Source: Alphaproteobacteria bacterium
GTDB lineage: Bacteria; Pseudomonadota; Alphaproteobacteria; Rickettsiales; JABCZZ01
Assembly: GCA_035906055.1 (NCBI GenBank)
Contig: JAMIFV010000021.1
Coordinates: 1,810-65,809, forward strand
DNA: 64,000 nt
Direction: 5' to 3'
The notes below the pieces were generated by a model that was not told where the DNA came from, did not search any database, and saw nothing but the letters and a program-made list of their open reading frames with translations. Of this stretch, positions 5,743-41,744 are shown piece after piece. Made by a program: the position numbers and the translations under genes. Every line of letters starts with the position of its first letter. Positions within the stretch are counted from its first letter, which is position 1.

Positions 5743-7272
5743 ATGGAAATTCGCCCTTCGGAAATTTCTGATATTCTCAAGAAAAAGATCGCCGCTTTTG
5801 ATGCAGGCGCTGAACTGTCCGAAACCGGGCAGGTTGTTTCCGTAGGTGACGGTATCGCCACCATCTATGGCCTCGAAAACGTACAGGCCGGTGAAATGGT
5901 GCAGTTCCCCAGCGGCATGAAGGGCATGGCGCTCAATCTTGAAGCCGACAATGTGGGCGTGGTAATCTTCGGTTCCGACCAGGCCGTGAAAGAAGGCGAC
6001 ATCGTAAAACGTACCGGCGACATCGTGGACGTTCCCGTGGGCAAAGGCCTGCTGGGCCGCGTAGTTGACGCACTGGGCAACCCGATCGACGGCAAAGGCC
6101 CCCTGAAGGACGTAAAACGCTCCCGCGTGGAAGTGAAGGCTCCCGGTATCGTATACCGCAAATCCGTACATGAGCCGATGTCCACGGGCATCAAGGCTAT
6201 CGACGCACTCATCCCCATCGGGCGCGGCCAGCGCGAGCTGATCATCGGTGACCGTCAGACCGGCAAGACCGCCATCGCGGTTGACACCATCCTCAACCAG
6301 AAAGCCGCCAACGCAGGCGACGACGAAAGCAAGAAGCTGTACTGCATCTATGTGTGCGTAGGCCAGAAGCGTTCCACCGTTGCGCAGGTAGTGAAAAAGC
6401 TCGAAGAGACCGGCGCGCTGGAATATTCCATCGTGGTAGCCGCCACCGCTTCGGAGCCCGCTCCGCTGCAGTATCTCGCGCCCTACACCGGCGCCGCCAT
6501 GGGCGAATTCTTCCGCGACAACGCCATGCATGCGCTGATCATTTATGATGATCTTTCCAAGCAGGCCGTGGCTTACCGCCAGATGTCCCTGCTCTTGCGC
6601 CGCCCGCCCGGCCGTGAAGCGTATCCCGGTGACGTATTCTACGTTCACTCCCGCCTGCTCGAACGCGCCGCTAAAATGAGCGACGACAAGGGCGCAGGCT
6701 CACTCACCGCCCTGCCCGTCATCGAAACGCAGGCTGGCGACGTATCCGCCTACATCCCGACCAACGTAATCTCCATCACCGACGGCCAGATATTCCTTGA
6801 AACCGAACTGTTCTACAAAGGCGTGCGCCCCGCGGTTAACGTGGGCCTTTCCGTATCCCGCGTAGGTTCTGCCGCGCAGATCAAGGCCATGAAGCAGGTA
6901 GCAGGTTCCATCAAGCTGGAACTCGCGCAGTACCGCGAAATGGAGGCATTCGCCCAGTTCGGTTCCGACCTCGACGCCGCCACGCAGAAGCTGCTGGCAC
7001 GCGGCCAGCGCCTCACTGAACTGCTCAAGCAGCCGCAATACTCTCCGCTCTCCACTTCGGAAGAAGTCCTGGTGATCTATGCGGGCGTAAAAGGCTACCT
7101 CGACGCCATGCCGGTGAAGAACATCGCTGAGTTCGAAAAGGCGCTGCTGCAGCAGGCACGCGCTGAAGGCAAGCTGCTTGCCACCATCGACAAGGAACAG
7201 AAACTCACTGATGCTTCCGAAGCCCAGATGAAAACCATGATCACCGAAATTGTGAAAAGGTTCGCCAGTTAG
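5743..7272 (+). CDS. atpA: F1 ATP synthase alpha subunit
   Basis: GDRQTGKT Walker [14 protein letters not shown]; SD ggag upstream. Confidence 0.99.
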
Positions 7273-7300
7273 GGGCTAGCTACTAGTAGCTAGGGACTGG
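7270..7300 (+). repeat. Left heptamer-period arm (CTAG flavour)
   Basis: CTAG at 7276, 7283, 7290 and CTGG at 7297 (7-nt period); begins at the atpA stop codon TAG. Confidence 0.85.
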
Positions 7301-7305
7301 CTTGT

Positions 7306-7683
7306 ATGGTTAAGCATTATAGAGAACTGAAGATTTGGCAAAGATCCATGGAATTGACGAAATCAATATATGAGGCTACCGCGCAATTTCCTAAAACGGA
7401 AATATATGGCCTTGCCGTTCAGATGCGTCGTTCATCTGTCTCGGTGCCGTCTAATATCGCCGAAGGGCATAATCGAGATTCTTCAAAAGAGTTTCTGCGT
7501 TTTCCTTCCATTGCCCAAGGCTCGCTTGCCGAGTTGGAAACACAGATCACTCTCTCGCAAGCGTTCGCCTACATTCCTGAAAAGCAGGCTTATGATTTAC
7601 TGCAATGTGCCGATGAAGTTGGAAAAATGATTCGCGGCCTGCAATCCAGAATTAACGAAAACCTACTAGCCCCTAGCAACTAG
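7306..7683 (+). CDS. Four-helix-bundle protein (23S rRNA intervening-sequence protein / TIGR02436-like; Avd-like fold)
   Basis: YRELKIWQRSM..IY..T..FPK.E.YGL..QMRRSSVSVPSNIAEG..R.S.KEF....IA.GSL.ELETQ signature; lower GC than flanks. Confidence 0.93.
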   Translation: MVKHYRELKIWQRSMELTKSIYEATAQFPKTEIYGLAVQMRRSSVSVPSNIAEGHNRDSSKEFLRFPSIAQGSLAELETQITLSQAFAYIPEKQAYDLLQCADEVGKMIRGLQSRINENLLAPSN

Positions 7684-7695
7684 CTCCTAGCAACT
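7663..7695 (+). repeat. Right heptamer-period arm (CTAG flavour), inverted relative to 7270-7300
   Basis: CTAG at 7666, 7673, 7680, 7687 and CTAT at 7694; ctagccccta complements taggggctag; contains the four-helix gene stop and abuts the atpG ATG. Confidence 0.85.
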
Positions 7696-8568
7696 ATGCC
7701 AAGTTTAAAAGATTTAAAGAACAGGATTAAGAGCGTCAAATCGACGCAGAAGATCACGAAGGCCATGAAGATGGTGGCCGCCGCGAAGCTGCGCCGCGCC
7801 AAGGACCGTGCAGAATCCGCACGCCCCTATGCGGAAAAGATGGCCGCTATCCTTTCCTCCCTCGCCGCAGGCCAGAGCCAGAACGCCATTCCGCTGCTAA
7901 ACGGCACGGGTAAATCCGACACCGTGCTGCTGGTGGTGATGACCTCCGACCGTGGCCTGTGCGGCGCGTTCAACGGCTCCATCACGCGTGCCACCAAACG
8001 CAAGGTGGCCGAGCTGAGAGCCGCGGGCAAGACCGTGAAGCTCTTGTGCATAGGCAAAAAAGCCTATGACCTGCTCAAGAACGATTTCGGCAGCCTGATC
8101 ATCGGCCGCATGAGCGAGATCGGCAAGAAGCAGGTGCAATACGCGGAAGCCGAACATATCGCACGCGCCGTGCTCAAGCATTTCAACGATGGCGGCATCG
8201 ACATGGTGCATATCGTTTACAACCATTTCAAGTCGGCCATATCGCAGGTGGTTACGTTCCAGCAGGTGATTCCGTTGCTAGAACTAAACAACGAACAACG
8301 AGCAACGAACAACGTTCCCTATGAATTCGAGCCGGATGAAGAATCCATCCTCGCCGACCTGCTGCCGCGTAACGTGGCCGTGCAGATCTATGGCGGGCTT
8401 CTGGAAAATGCCGCATCCGAACAGGGCGCGCGCATGACCGCGATGGACAACGCCACCCGCAACGCAGGCGGCATGATCGGCAAGCTCACCCTCAAATACA
8501 ACCGTACCCGTCAGGCGACGATTACGAAAGAACTCATTGAGATTATCTCGGGAGCGGAAGCATTATAA
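7696..8568 (+). CDS. atpG: F1 ATP synthase gamma subunit
   Basis: [50 protein letters not shown]. Confidence 0.99.
8286..8314 (+). repeat. In-frame heptamer array inside atpG (CAAC flavour)
   Basis: aaacaac-gaacaac-gagcaac-gaacaac-g, encoding NNEQRATNN. Confidence 0.85.
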
Positions 8569-8570
8569 CC

Positions 8571-8634
8571 GTTTTTAGTTGTTGGTTGTTCGTTGTTCGA
8601 ACCGCTGACAACCCACAACAAGCAACGAACAACG
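8571..8634 (+). repeat. Empty heptamer-period hairpin between atpG and atpD (GTTG/CAAC flavour)
   Basis: gttttta-gttgttg-gttgttc-gttgttc, then tgacaac-ccacaac-aagcaac-gaacaac. Confidence 0.88.
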
Positions 8635-8646
8635 ATTTTTGAATAA

Positions 8647-10816: not shown

Positions 10817-19210
<8,394 letters not shown>

Positions 19211-23438: not shown

Positions 23439-23512
23439 AACGTCCTCGCATACGATGCTTATATATAAGGGGGTGCTAATTATCGTAAAGCAGGCTGTAA
23501 GGCAAGGGGTAA

Positions 23513-23627
23513 TTCGTTGTTCGTTGTTCGTTGTTCATTGTTCGCGCGCACCGGAAGGTGGCATATCCATATAAAGTACTATTTATACAAAATAATTCTA
23601 ACAACGAAGAACTAACAACCAACAACG
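23513..23627 (-). repeat. Heptamer-period inverted repeat at the thiD 3' end (GTTG/CAAC flavour)
   Basis: ttcgttg x3 + ttcattg + ttcg (23513-23544) versus aacaacg-aagaact-aacaacc-aacaacg (23600-23627); the latter includes the last thiD codons and stop. Confidence 0.88.
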
Positions 23628-24424
23628 TGATGATTGAGGGGCCCGTGCCCTTTTCCCAGCCCCGGCGCGGTGCGTATGGCTTCATGCACATATGCCCTTG
23701 CCCGCTCCACCGCCTTTTTCAGTTCCAGCCCCTGCGCCAGGCCGGTCGCGATAGCGGAAGCGAGCGTGCAGCCCGTGCCGTGCGTATGCAAGGTATGGAT
23801 GCGGGGGGAAGAGAACGTGATAAGTGGCACGTGGCACGTGGCAAGAACATCTGTGACGATATCGCCCCGTAAATGCCCCCCCTTGAGCAATACAGACTTA
23901 GCACCTAAAGTGAGCAGAGACTGCGCTAACATTTCCATTTCCTTACCACTTGCCACGTGCCACCTGCCACCACTTAGGAGTTCCGCTTCCGGTATGTTAG
24001 GGGTAAGAACCGCCGCCTTCGGGATCAGCCGCGTTTTCAGGGCTTCCAGAGCCTCCTGCTGAAGCAGTGGTGCGCCGCCCTTGGCTACCATCACGGGGTC
24101 AAGCACAAGCGGAATGGCCGGGTAATCATCCAATACTTTTGCCACCGTGTTGATGACCCCGGCACTATGCAGCATGCCGGTCTTGATGCAGTCCGCGCCG
24201 ATATCCTCCAGCACCAGCCGCATCTGCTGCTCTAAAAAAGCCGTGGGCACCTCATGGATGCCAAAAACCCCGTGGCTGTTCTGGGCGGTGAGTGCCGTTA
24301 CAGCCGTGGCGGCATAGCCCCCAAGCATGGTTATAGTCTTGATATCCCCCTGAATTCCGGCTCCTCCGCCCGAATCCGACCCGGCAACGACCAATACCCT
24401 GCCCGCCAATTTTTTCTCGTTCAT
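23612..24424 (-). CDS. thiD: Hydroxymethylpyrimidine/phosphomethylpyrimidine kinase ThiD
   Basis: AGSDSGGGAGIQGD, DPVMVAKGG, TPNIPEAE, KGGH, HTHGTGCTLASA; ATG 24424 has aaggaa SD. Confidence 0.96.
   Translation of the reverse strand: MNEKKLAGRVLVVAGSDSGGGAGIQGDIKTITMLGGYAATAVTALTAQNSHGVFGIHEVPTAFLEQQMRLVLEDIGADCIKTGMLHSAGVINTVAKVLDDYPAIPLVLDPVMVAKGGAPLLQQEALEALKTRLIPKAAVLTPNIPEAELLSGGRWHVASGKEMEMLAQSLLTLGAKSVLLKGGHLRGDIVTDVLATCHVPLITFSSPRIHTLHTHGTGCTLASAIATGLAQGLELKKAVERARAYVHEAIRTAPGLGKGHGPLNHHVVGC
23817..23970 (-). repeat. In-frame inverted heptamer arms inside thiD (GTGGCA/TGCCAC flavour)
   Basis: gtgataa-gtggcac-gtggcac-gtggcaa (23817-23844) and ttaccac-ttgccac-gtgccac-ctgccac (23943-23970). 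Confidence 0.9.
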
Positions 24425-41673: not shown

Positions 41674-41738
41674 GTACTCGGTTAATCGTACTCGGTACTC
41701 GGAGCAATACCGAGTACGCAAAACCGTGTACCGAGTAC
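41674..41738 (-). repeat. Heptamer-phased inverted repeat after the APC permease (GTACTC/GAGTAC flavour)
   Basis: gtactcg at 41674, 41688, 41695; cgagtac 41711, cgtgtac 41725, cgagtac 41732; starts 6 nt after the stop codon. Confidence 0.75.
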
Positions 41739-41744
41739 AAACTC

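Follow-up and report, generated by a model that had tools for sequence, protein, structure and literature searches.

What kind of element can place a gene between atpA and atpG, two adjoining cistrons of an essential operon, so that the insert starts in the stop codon of the one and ends in the start codon of the other? The question is raised by a stretch of 64,000 nucleotides from an alphaproteobacterium of the order Rickettsiales (GTDB lineage JABCZZ01; GenBank assembly GCA_035906055.1, contig JAMIFV010000021.1, positions 1,810 to 65,809 of the forward strand), referred to below, at its full length, as the window. Its atp operon contains an insert encoding a four-helix-bundle protein of the PF05635 (S23p) family, which a first-pass annotation had read as a cassette resembling an intervening sequence (IVS). 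On balance we think it probable, with some reservation, that the insert is an IVS-type cassette, that is, a PF05635 gene enclosed by inverted arrays of about four heptamers, brought to the atpA/atpG stop/start junction by recombination and looped out in the transcript.

Structure of the cassette

The junction comprises the following features, given in window positions; the gene enclosed by the arms is called the cargo, ORF stands for open reading frame and SD for Shine-Dalgarno.

5743..7272, + strand: atpA, F1 alpha subunit (ORF; Pfam ATP-synt_ab E 9e-82, plus N- and C-terminal domains)
7264..7734, + strand: putative imported tract (last two atpA codons and stop, entire cassette, first 13 atpG codons)
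7270..7298, + strand: left arm, four TAG/CTAG-centred heptamers TAGGGGC TAGCTAC TAGTAGC TAGGGAC (inverted repeat I1, direct family D1)
7292..7296, + strand: SD-like AGGGA of the cargo, within the left arm and 9 nt 5' of the cargo ATG (read from the sequence)
7306..7683, + strand: cargo ORF, 125 aa, PF05635/TIGR02436 four-helix-bundle protein (S23p)
7504..7506, + strand: cargo codon 67, CCT, Pro
7663..7696, + strand: right arm, (CTAGNNN) x 4.6 (Tandem Repeats Finder: period 7, 4.6 copies at 7665-7696; period 14, 94% matches)
7696..8568, + strand: atpG, F1 gamma subunit (ORF and Pfam; codons 1-13 synonymously recoded compared with the nearest relatives)

The insert is 423 nt in size and spans all of the gap from the TAG stop of atpA (7270-7272) to the ATG of atpG (7696). 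Its ends form the inverted repeat I1 (7270-7298 and 7668-7696), 29 nt with 76% complementarity, the core of which, TAGGGGCTAG/CTAGCCCCTA, is a perfect 10-nt match. As the first-pass annotation had described, the left arm opens in the atpA stop, the TAG being its first triplet, and holds in AGGGA (7292-7296) the sole purine-rich SD-like run 5' of the cargo ATG, while the right arm encodes the cargo tail LLAPSN and its TAG stop (7681-7683) and has the A of the atpG ATG as its last nucleotide. The lack of an SD for atpG was likewise verified, with no such run in the 20 nt upstream of the ATG (CAACTAGCTCCTAGCAACT). The cargo stop lies 12 nt from the atpG ATG, and no internal promoter or terminator was found in 7270-7700. 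What the earlier description had missed was the tandem-heptamer build of the arms and their membership in a genome-wide set of such arrays. Because it is located between atpA and atpG and not within a 23S rRNA helix, the cassette is filed here as a variant and not as an rRNA IVS.

The cargo ORF is intact and keeps 25 invariant residues. It matched PF05635 with an E value of 7.9e-39 (132.6 bits against a cut-off of 33.8) and the NCBIfam model TIGR02436, 'four helix bundle protein', with an E value of 8e-36. The closest solved structure was PDB 2GSC (E 6.8e-22; five chains), the uncharacterised four-helix-bundle protein XCC0516 of Xanthomonas campestris, and a PF05635/S23p protein has been reported as a homopentameric toroid (PMC4990558). 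In the public gene call the cargo begins at Met15, which gives 111 aa and skips 7306-7347; residues Y5, L8, W11 and Q12 of the N-terminus are conserved, and the true start is therefore placed at 7306 or earlier. Ratios of nonsynonymous to synonymous substitution (dN/dS) were 0.07-0.11 among orthologous cargos; the value for the window copy was about 0.14, at saturated dS. By this measure the protein family is under purifying selection and functional. The proline in FLRFPSIA, previously taken as a possible sign of decay, is real: the column of codon 67 holds Leu, Ile or Val in 225 of 230 relatives (166, 49 and 10, respectively) and Pro in two. Decay is a reasonable, if unproven, reading of this residue, and the window copy looks mildly degraded when L67P is considered together with its arms, which are the least complementary of the atpA|atpG cassette lineage.

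Empty and occupied junctions in related genomes

The nearest genomes by AtpG are three metagenome contigs with 91, 89 and 83% identity. Comparison of atpA-atpG junctions, which the first-pass annotation had suggested as a way to find the empty site, revealed it in all three, tightly coupled as TAA-GC-ATG, TAA-GCA-ATG and an overlapping TAATG. One of these contigs (L239, AtpG 89% identical at the amino acid level) also emerged independently when public contigs were aligned with the window: it matches as far as 7265 and resumes at 7735, 48 letters replacing 469 of the window. A further genome of the same family (G002) has a 36-nt atpA-atpG spacer with AAGGA. By these comparisons the cassette is an insertion, which none of the three nearest relatives has.

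The four best cargo homologues in a search of 5.8 billion proteins are 63-66% identical, all of which are located at atpA|atpG, in hosts that are more distant (AtpG about 63-68% identical), and all of which share CTAG-type arms and an arm-encoded tail, LLEPST followed by a stop. By synteny and arm type, the cassette belongs to a lineage of atpA|atpG cassettes with CTAG-type arms. Heptamer-armed inserts were also present at atpA|atpG in G004 and G007, and at atpG|atpD in G004, G003, G016 and G024, where they are PF05635-sized. Other genes were seen at the atpG|atpD junction of relatives, including an ORF for a 162-aa membrane protein (L239), a Cys-rich lipoprotein-like ORF (L241) and a YbjQ gene (L245). 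That such an insertion is tolerated in an essential operon, as had been proposed, agrees with the lack of an internal promoter or terminator and with the persistence of syntenic cassettes under purifying selection (dN/dS 0.07-0.14). Contigs of three activated-sludge runs, two of which span the cassette in full, contained no variant form of it.

Beyond the atp operon, a scan of species genomes identified 80 loci across many phyla, which with the relatives' loci amount to 110 distinct cassettes. Complementary arms (score >=14) were found at 71 of the 110, against 1 of 110 cross-locus flank pairings, a share that is not family-wide because the loci were picked as best matches to armed cassettes. 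The best arm period was 7 in 62 of the armed cassettes and 8 in the other 9, and the heptamer units varied from locus to locus.

Origin of the cassette

The GC content at third codon positions (GC3) of the cargo is 0.44 (0.34-0.44 over the four PF05635 cassettes resident in the genome), compared with 0.72-0.74 for atpA and atpG; orthologous cargos have a GC3 of 0.20-0.34 beside host atp genes at 0.36-0.78. AT-rich cargos (L244-L247 and the four resident cassettes; GC3 0.20-0.44) occurred regardless of host-gene GC3 (0.36-0.78). Such persistent AT-richness may reflect either frequent transfer or selection for a low-GC loop.

Relative to L239, the first 39 nt of atpG contain 15 differences, compared with 13% divergence in the remainder of the gene (P = 7e-5). 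AtpG residues 1-20 do not vary among the genomes compared, and all 15 differences, which include switches between codon families for Ser and Arg, are therefore synonymous. On the other side, the 3' end of atpA is 93-100% identical to that of L239 per 45-nt block over the last 180 nt, with only two differences in the last 30 nt, at positions 1 and 4 back from the last sense nucleotide; the stop is TAG in the window versus TAA in L239. No target-site duplication was seen on comparison of the filled and empty sites (AGT-TAG[...]ATG versus AGC-TAA-GC-ATG). The foreign composition and the mosaic boundary are most simply read as the outcome of homologous recombination, not transposition, by which the genome acquired a tract of about 470 nt (approximately 7264-7734) from a donor of lower GC; the crossovers would have fallen in short conserved stretches, in the 3' end of atpA and around codon 13 of atpG. 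Ancestry is also the simpler explanation for the absence of an SD before atpG, because the empty site is a stop/start-coupled junction without an intergenic SD.

Pairing of the arms

The first-pass annotation had suggested that the arms pair, and in silico they do so in both the minimum free energy and the centroid folds of 7255-7715, with pair probabilities of 0.9-1.0 for the outer helix and one inner helix. The energy of the arm duplex was -35.9 kcal/mol, as against -16.5 +/- 3.5 on shuffling of the arms (0 of 2000 shuffles reached this stability), and 19 of 3000 random genomic 40-mer pairs placed 391 nt apart were as stable as the cassette arms. The fold of the whole region was not unusual (z = -1.38), the signal being confined to the arms. 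All four resident PF05635 genes are in sense orientation with their host operon, and RNase III (rnc) is encoded in the genome.

By analogy with rRNA-borne members of the family, we propose that pairing of the arms in the atp mRNA gives an interrupted stem of about 24 bp, with the cargo looped out, and that this stem would be a substrate for the RNase III of the genome. Expression of atpG could then proceed by one or more of three routes: the stem may juxtapose the stop of atpA and the start of atpG and so recover the ancestral coupled geometry; ribosomes may re-initiate once they have finished the cargo; or the cleaved, short-leader mRNA may be translated. Given that the cargo stop is only 12 nt before the atpG ATG, a translational relay would therefore be an alternative to juxtaposition by the stem.

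Several observations count against a cassette imported and looped out in this way. Firstly, the stem is interrupted, with helices of 3, 5, 5, 7 and 4 bp, and since the longest is of 7 bp and the arms are 76% complementary, its recognition by RNase III is uncertain. Secondly, the 71 armed cassettes showed no sense-strand preference for G.U pairs, with 74 G.U-compatible versus 73 A.C mismatches, and arm mismatches clustered at one heptamer position (0.42 versus about 0.08 elsewhere). Thirdly, among the six atpA|atpG cassettes compared for arm covariation (window, L244-L247 and L007), complementarity of a cassette's own arms (mean 16.2) was no better than that across orthologues (13.8), and no compensatory covariation was found beyond the shared unit. 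An SD-like run was present at 1 of 13 starts adjoining hairpins versus 28% genome-wide, although start calls were crude and this comparison is weakly informative, and the donor of the imported tract was not found. Among RNA runs, none was found to contain the stretch. Mismatches at a single variable position are less suited to a selected stem than to slippage or to a binding site that is repeated, and the mismatch and pairing features taken together fit repeat units that are homogenised, or that are read, for example by the pentameric protein given 4-5 units in an arm, at least as well as a stem selected in RNA. The two indirect tests of RNA-level selection, wobble asymmetry and own- versus cross-arm pairing, were neutral and lend no support to the regulatory roles that the first-pass annotation had attached to the arms.

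Heptamer hairpins elsewhere in the genome

The assembly (2.36 Mb in 81 contigs, 100% complete) contains four PF05635 genes. The other three are located at carA|carB, leuC|leuD and ilvH|ilvC, as identified by Pfam on the flanks, within self-complementary inverted heptamer arrays that are distinct from one another (GAGTTCN, GTTGTTN and GTTGCAN, respectively). In the carAB copy, carA runs through the left arm so that its stop overlaps the cargo ATG, and the cargo stop overlaps the ATG of carB.

Arrays of period 7 numbered 79 genome-wide, compared with 6 of period 8, and there were 35 inverted pairs of heptamer arrays versus one each at periods 6 and 8. The loop was 0-140 nt in 32 of the 35 and 358-396 nt in the three gene-bearing pairs; the window cassette was too degenerate for the inverted-pair filter and is outside the 35. 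The approximately 31 gene-less hairpins use the same unit families as the four armed genes. In heptamer hairpins the G/T-rich arm is always 5' and an arm has 4-5 units (median 4.3-4.6). Ten pairs fill a gap between co-directional genes to within <=15 nt on each side and eight lie inside called coding sequences; no enrichment between co-directional genes was detected (21 of 27, versus 70% genome-wide). Heptamer arrays were also found as solo arms and within coding sequences.

PF05635 was patchily distributed, being present in 13 of 31 relatives, and the density of heptamer hairpins was as follows.

Own genome: 4 gene copies; 14.8 hairpins per Mb
G024: 7 gene copies; 20 per Mb
G016 and G019: one and two weak or interrupted gene matches, respectively; 1 per 100 kb each
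G014 and G018: single or weak gene copy; 0 per 100 kb
Seven gene-less relatives: 0 copies; no genuine hairpin in 1.2 Mb (a low-complexity A/T pair in G008)

Hairpins were thus seen only in those sampled relatives that carry a PF05635 gene, a clean contrast in a small sample from a single order.

This distribution invites a different explanation, which we hold as tentative: that protein and arrays form a system of reader and sites acting on DNA or single strands, like repetitive extragenic palindromic (REP) sequences and their REP-associated tyrosine transposases (RAYT). A PF05635 pentamer would bind the heptamers, one per protomer, at the 4-5 units of each arm, and would maintain or spread its own arms and, in trans, the gene-less hairpins, the RNA stem being a by-product. 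Each of the four genes has a heptamer family of its own that is reused by gene-less hairpins. Genomes that carry 4-7 gene copies have 15-20 hairpins per Mb; of the four with one or two matches (some weak), two have 1 per 100 kb; and the 1.2 Mb of the seven gene-less relatives contain no genuine example. Also in favour are the median of 4.3-4.6 units per arm, the five chains of 2GSC and the reported homopentameric toroid (PMC4990558), the one variable position per heptamer, the strand symmetry of the mismatches, and the existence of solo arms and of arrays in coding sequences. However, the PF05635 protein has no known catalytic or nucleic-acid-specific activity, and six or seven hairpins of the GGGATT family are without a cognate gene in an assembly that is 100% complete. 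The co-occurrence, observed in few genomes of one order, could also reflect gene-less hairpins that are remnants of cassettes that lost their cargo, and acquisition looks recombinational, which needs no element-encoded activity.

Passenger or regulator

It appears unlikely that the cassette is a neutral, decaying passenger, derived from a single recombinational import, with arms and protein now inert for host and element alike and tolerated because the 3:1 stoichiometry of alpha to gamma demands little atpG translation. The window copy would fit this description in that no other arms of its lineage are as weak, L67P alters a position occupied by aliphatic residues in about 98% of relatives, and there is neither a wobble nor a compensation signal, and the S23p ORF of Coxiella has been reported as unexpressed and eroding (PMC4990558). 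Counting against inertness are an intact ORF that retains all other invariant residues, a dN/dS of about 0.14 against orthologues (dS saturated), arms that are still far stabler than shuffles, and a cassette that is fixed, with no variant among the contigs of the three activated-sludge runs (two spanning it fully).

We give little credence to domestication as a regulator, whether by arms that act as a switch tuning translation of atpG versus atpA or by cargo autoregulation through masking of its SD. The position of AGGGA within the left arm and of the atpG ATG at the foot of the right arm would suit such a role, as would the recurrence of heptamer-armed inserts at atpA|atpG and atpG|atpD in at least five relatives (G004, G007, G003, G016 and G024). 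However, the nearest relatives function without the cassette and the same cassette type is found in unrelated operons and across phyla, which favours a general selfish or insertional logic over atp-specific regulation.

Two further candidates were rejected: a diversity-generating retroelement (DGR) with its Avd protein, as the genome encodes no reverse transcriptase (RVT_1) anywhere and the Avd model scored under its cut-off, and a transposon of the insertion sequence (IS) or miniature inverted-repeat type, as there is no target duplication and no transposase, the four copies have four different arm sequences, and the mosaic boundary points to recombination.

Further hairpins and arrays

Immediately downstream of atpG, the window contains a second, gene-less element.

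8570..8636, + strand: gene-less hairpin of the CGTTGTT/AACAACG (GTTGTT) family, between atpG and atpD

The atpD gene keeps its own AAGGA. A solo array of AACAACG x 4 at 8287-8314, which has its complement in the left arm of this 8570 hairpin, lies in frame within atpG and encodes NNEQRATNN. The matching surface-loop stretch in the three nearest relatives is ordinary sequence (DTSKIDATANTT), and because it is of nearly equal length, the array seems to have overwritten the stretch and not to have been inserted into it.

A hairpin of the GAGTTC family was found between rpoB and rpoC (15034-15105), with units near-identical to those of the carA|carB cassette arms, including the rare GAGTCCG variant. 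Another complete hairpin of this family, consisting of two arms and a loop of 107 nt, is embedded in frame in carA (C40:27096-27270; L001 693-867) and is translated as ...SSEFGVQL...LDSELRTPNS..., recalling the palindromic elements inside Rickettsia proteins. Three further hairpins of the window, at 23508-23628, 23817-23973 and 41685-41741, belong to the GTTGTT, GTGGCA and GTACTC families, respectively; two of them are in a divergent intergenic region, and the elements are therefore not confined to operon junctions. The six or seven hairpins of the GGGATT/GGCATT family (for example, C5:13385-13514 and C57:29003-29073) have no PF05635 gene with matching arms in the assembly; a unit of this type flanks a cassette at atpA|atpG in G004.

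Comparison with known systems

IVS that carry an ORF in 23S rRNA are reported, besides that of Coxiella burnetii, for Leptospira, Brucella and Xanthomonas-type S23p. The IVS in helix 45 of the C. burnetii 23S rRNA has 428 nt, a 28-bp stem and tandem GACAGAT heptamers 5' of the S23p ATG, and is cut by RNase III in mid-stem (PMC4990558). The window cassette is like it in its PF05635/S23p cargo, its size (423 versus 428 nt), its terminal complementary arms of about 28 nt, the tandem heptamers immediately 5' of the ORF, an SD-like element that forms part of the stem and a sense strand that is that of the host transcript. It is unlike it in that the host RNA is a protein-coding operon and not rRNA, that the arms abut stop and start codons, the right one being translated as the cargo tail, and that the stem, near-perfect in Coxiella, is interrupted. 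In the atp mRNA, excision by RNase III would split two cistrons and would not fragment a ribosome. The likeness to an IVS that the first-pass annotation had proposed is upheld by the protein family, the terminal stem of about 28 bp and the tandem heptamers as in Coxiella, but not by the host, an mRNA operon; taken together, the IVS-like reading appears partly supported, by architecture and by the comparison with relatives.

The cassettes also resemble the RAYT system and its REP doublet forming hairpins (REPIN): a gene is placed between inverted short repeats that are also dispersed as gene-less inverted doublets (here, four armed genes and about 31 hairpins), paralogues are paired with different repeat families, and gene and repeats co-occur across genomes. 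In contrast to RAYT, the protein is a four-helix bundle that matches PF05635 and bAvd only, not an IS200/IS605-type Y1 transposase, and the repeats are organised as heptamers in tandem instead of a single palindrome; no mobility activity is known.

Heptanucleotide arrays have been described as GGGAATC in Xanthomonas (70-75 inverted pairs) and GGGGAYT in Nostoc (PMC4692102), as elements of four and five units in Geobacter metallireducens (PMC2700814), and as TAACTGA repeats ending just before start codons in Beggiatoaceae (PMC4679880). Like those of the present genome, they have 4-5 units, often form convergent pairs, are mostly intergenic and sometimes intragenic, and often lie directly 5' of a start codon. 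Those papers name no PF05635, S23 or IVS protein, whereas here array and gene constitute one unit. The Avd proteins of DGRs have a distantly related four-helix-bundle fold (PF22296, E 1e-8; NF033474, 39.3 bits), but these scores are under the family cut-offs (40 bits for PF22296 and 80 bits for NF033474), and there is no reverse transcriptase and no pair of template and variable repeats (TR/VR).

Significance

Full-text searches found no literature linking PF05635/S23p to heptamer arrays outside rRNA, or describing an IVS-type element in an mRNA operon; what comes nearest in print is the Coxiella IVS and the gene-less heptamer arrays of Xanthomonas, Nostoc, Geobacter and Beggiatoaceae. To our knowledge, IVS in rRNA have been known since about 1990, with their origin and the role of their ORFs still unexplained. 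Heptamer arrays in the intergenic regions of bacteria have been catalogued on several occasions, with no gene assigned to them, and the present locus joins such arrays with an IVS gene in an essential mRNA operon. It goes beyond the rRNA cases in three respects: filled and empty versions of the site can be cleanly paired among near relatives, the footprint of recombination suggests a way in which such cassettes move, and one genome allows a family-by-family comparison of hairpins with and without a gene. The contribution of the window thus lies in the footprint, the syntenic atpA|atpG lineage and the co-occurrence of gene-less hairpins with the gene.

If the stem of the IVS-type cassette is processed, or if it bridges translation, it would represent a general means for an insert to lodge between coupled cistrons without polar damage, which would bear on how operons evolve and on the design of insulated insertions. 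More speculatively, and in our estimate possible though not favoured, PF05635 pentamers and inverted heptamer arrays may be the halves of one widespread genetic system, with a protein that reads its own repeat, a protomer for each 7-nt unit, and gene-less hairpins that depend on resident genes. The system would be carried between species by recombination, not by transposition, through the highly conserved genes between which it lodges (rRNA, atp, car, leu and ilv). If this were so, the IVS of 23S rRNA and the long-noted excess of intergenic heptamer repeats in bacterial genomes would be two faces of one system.

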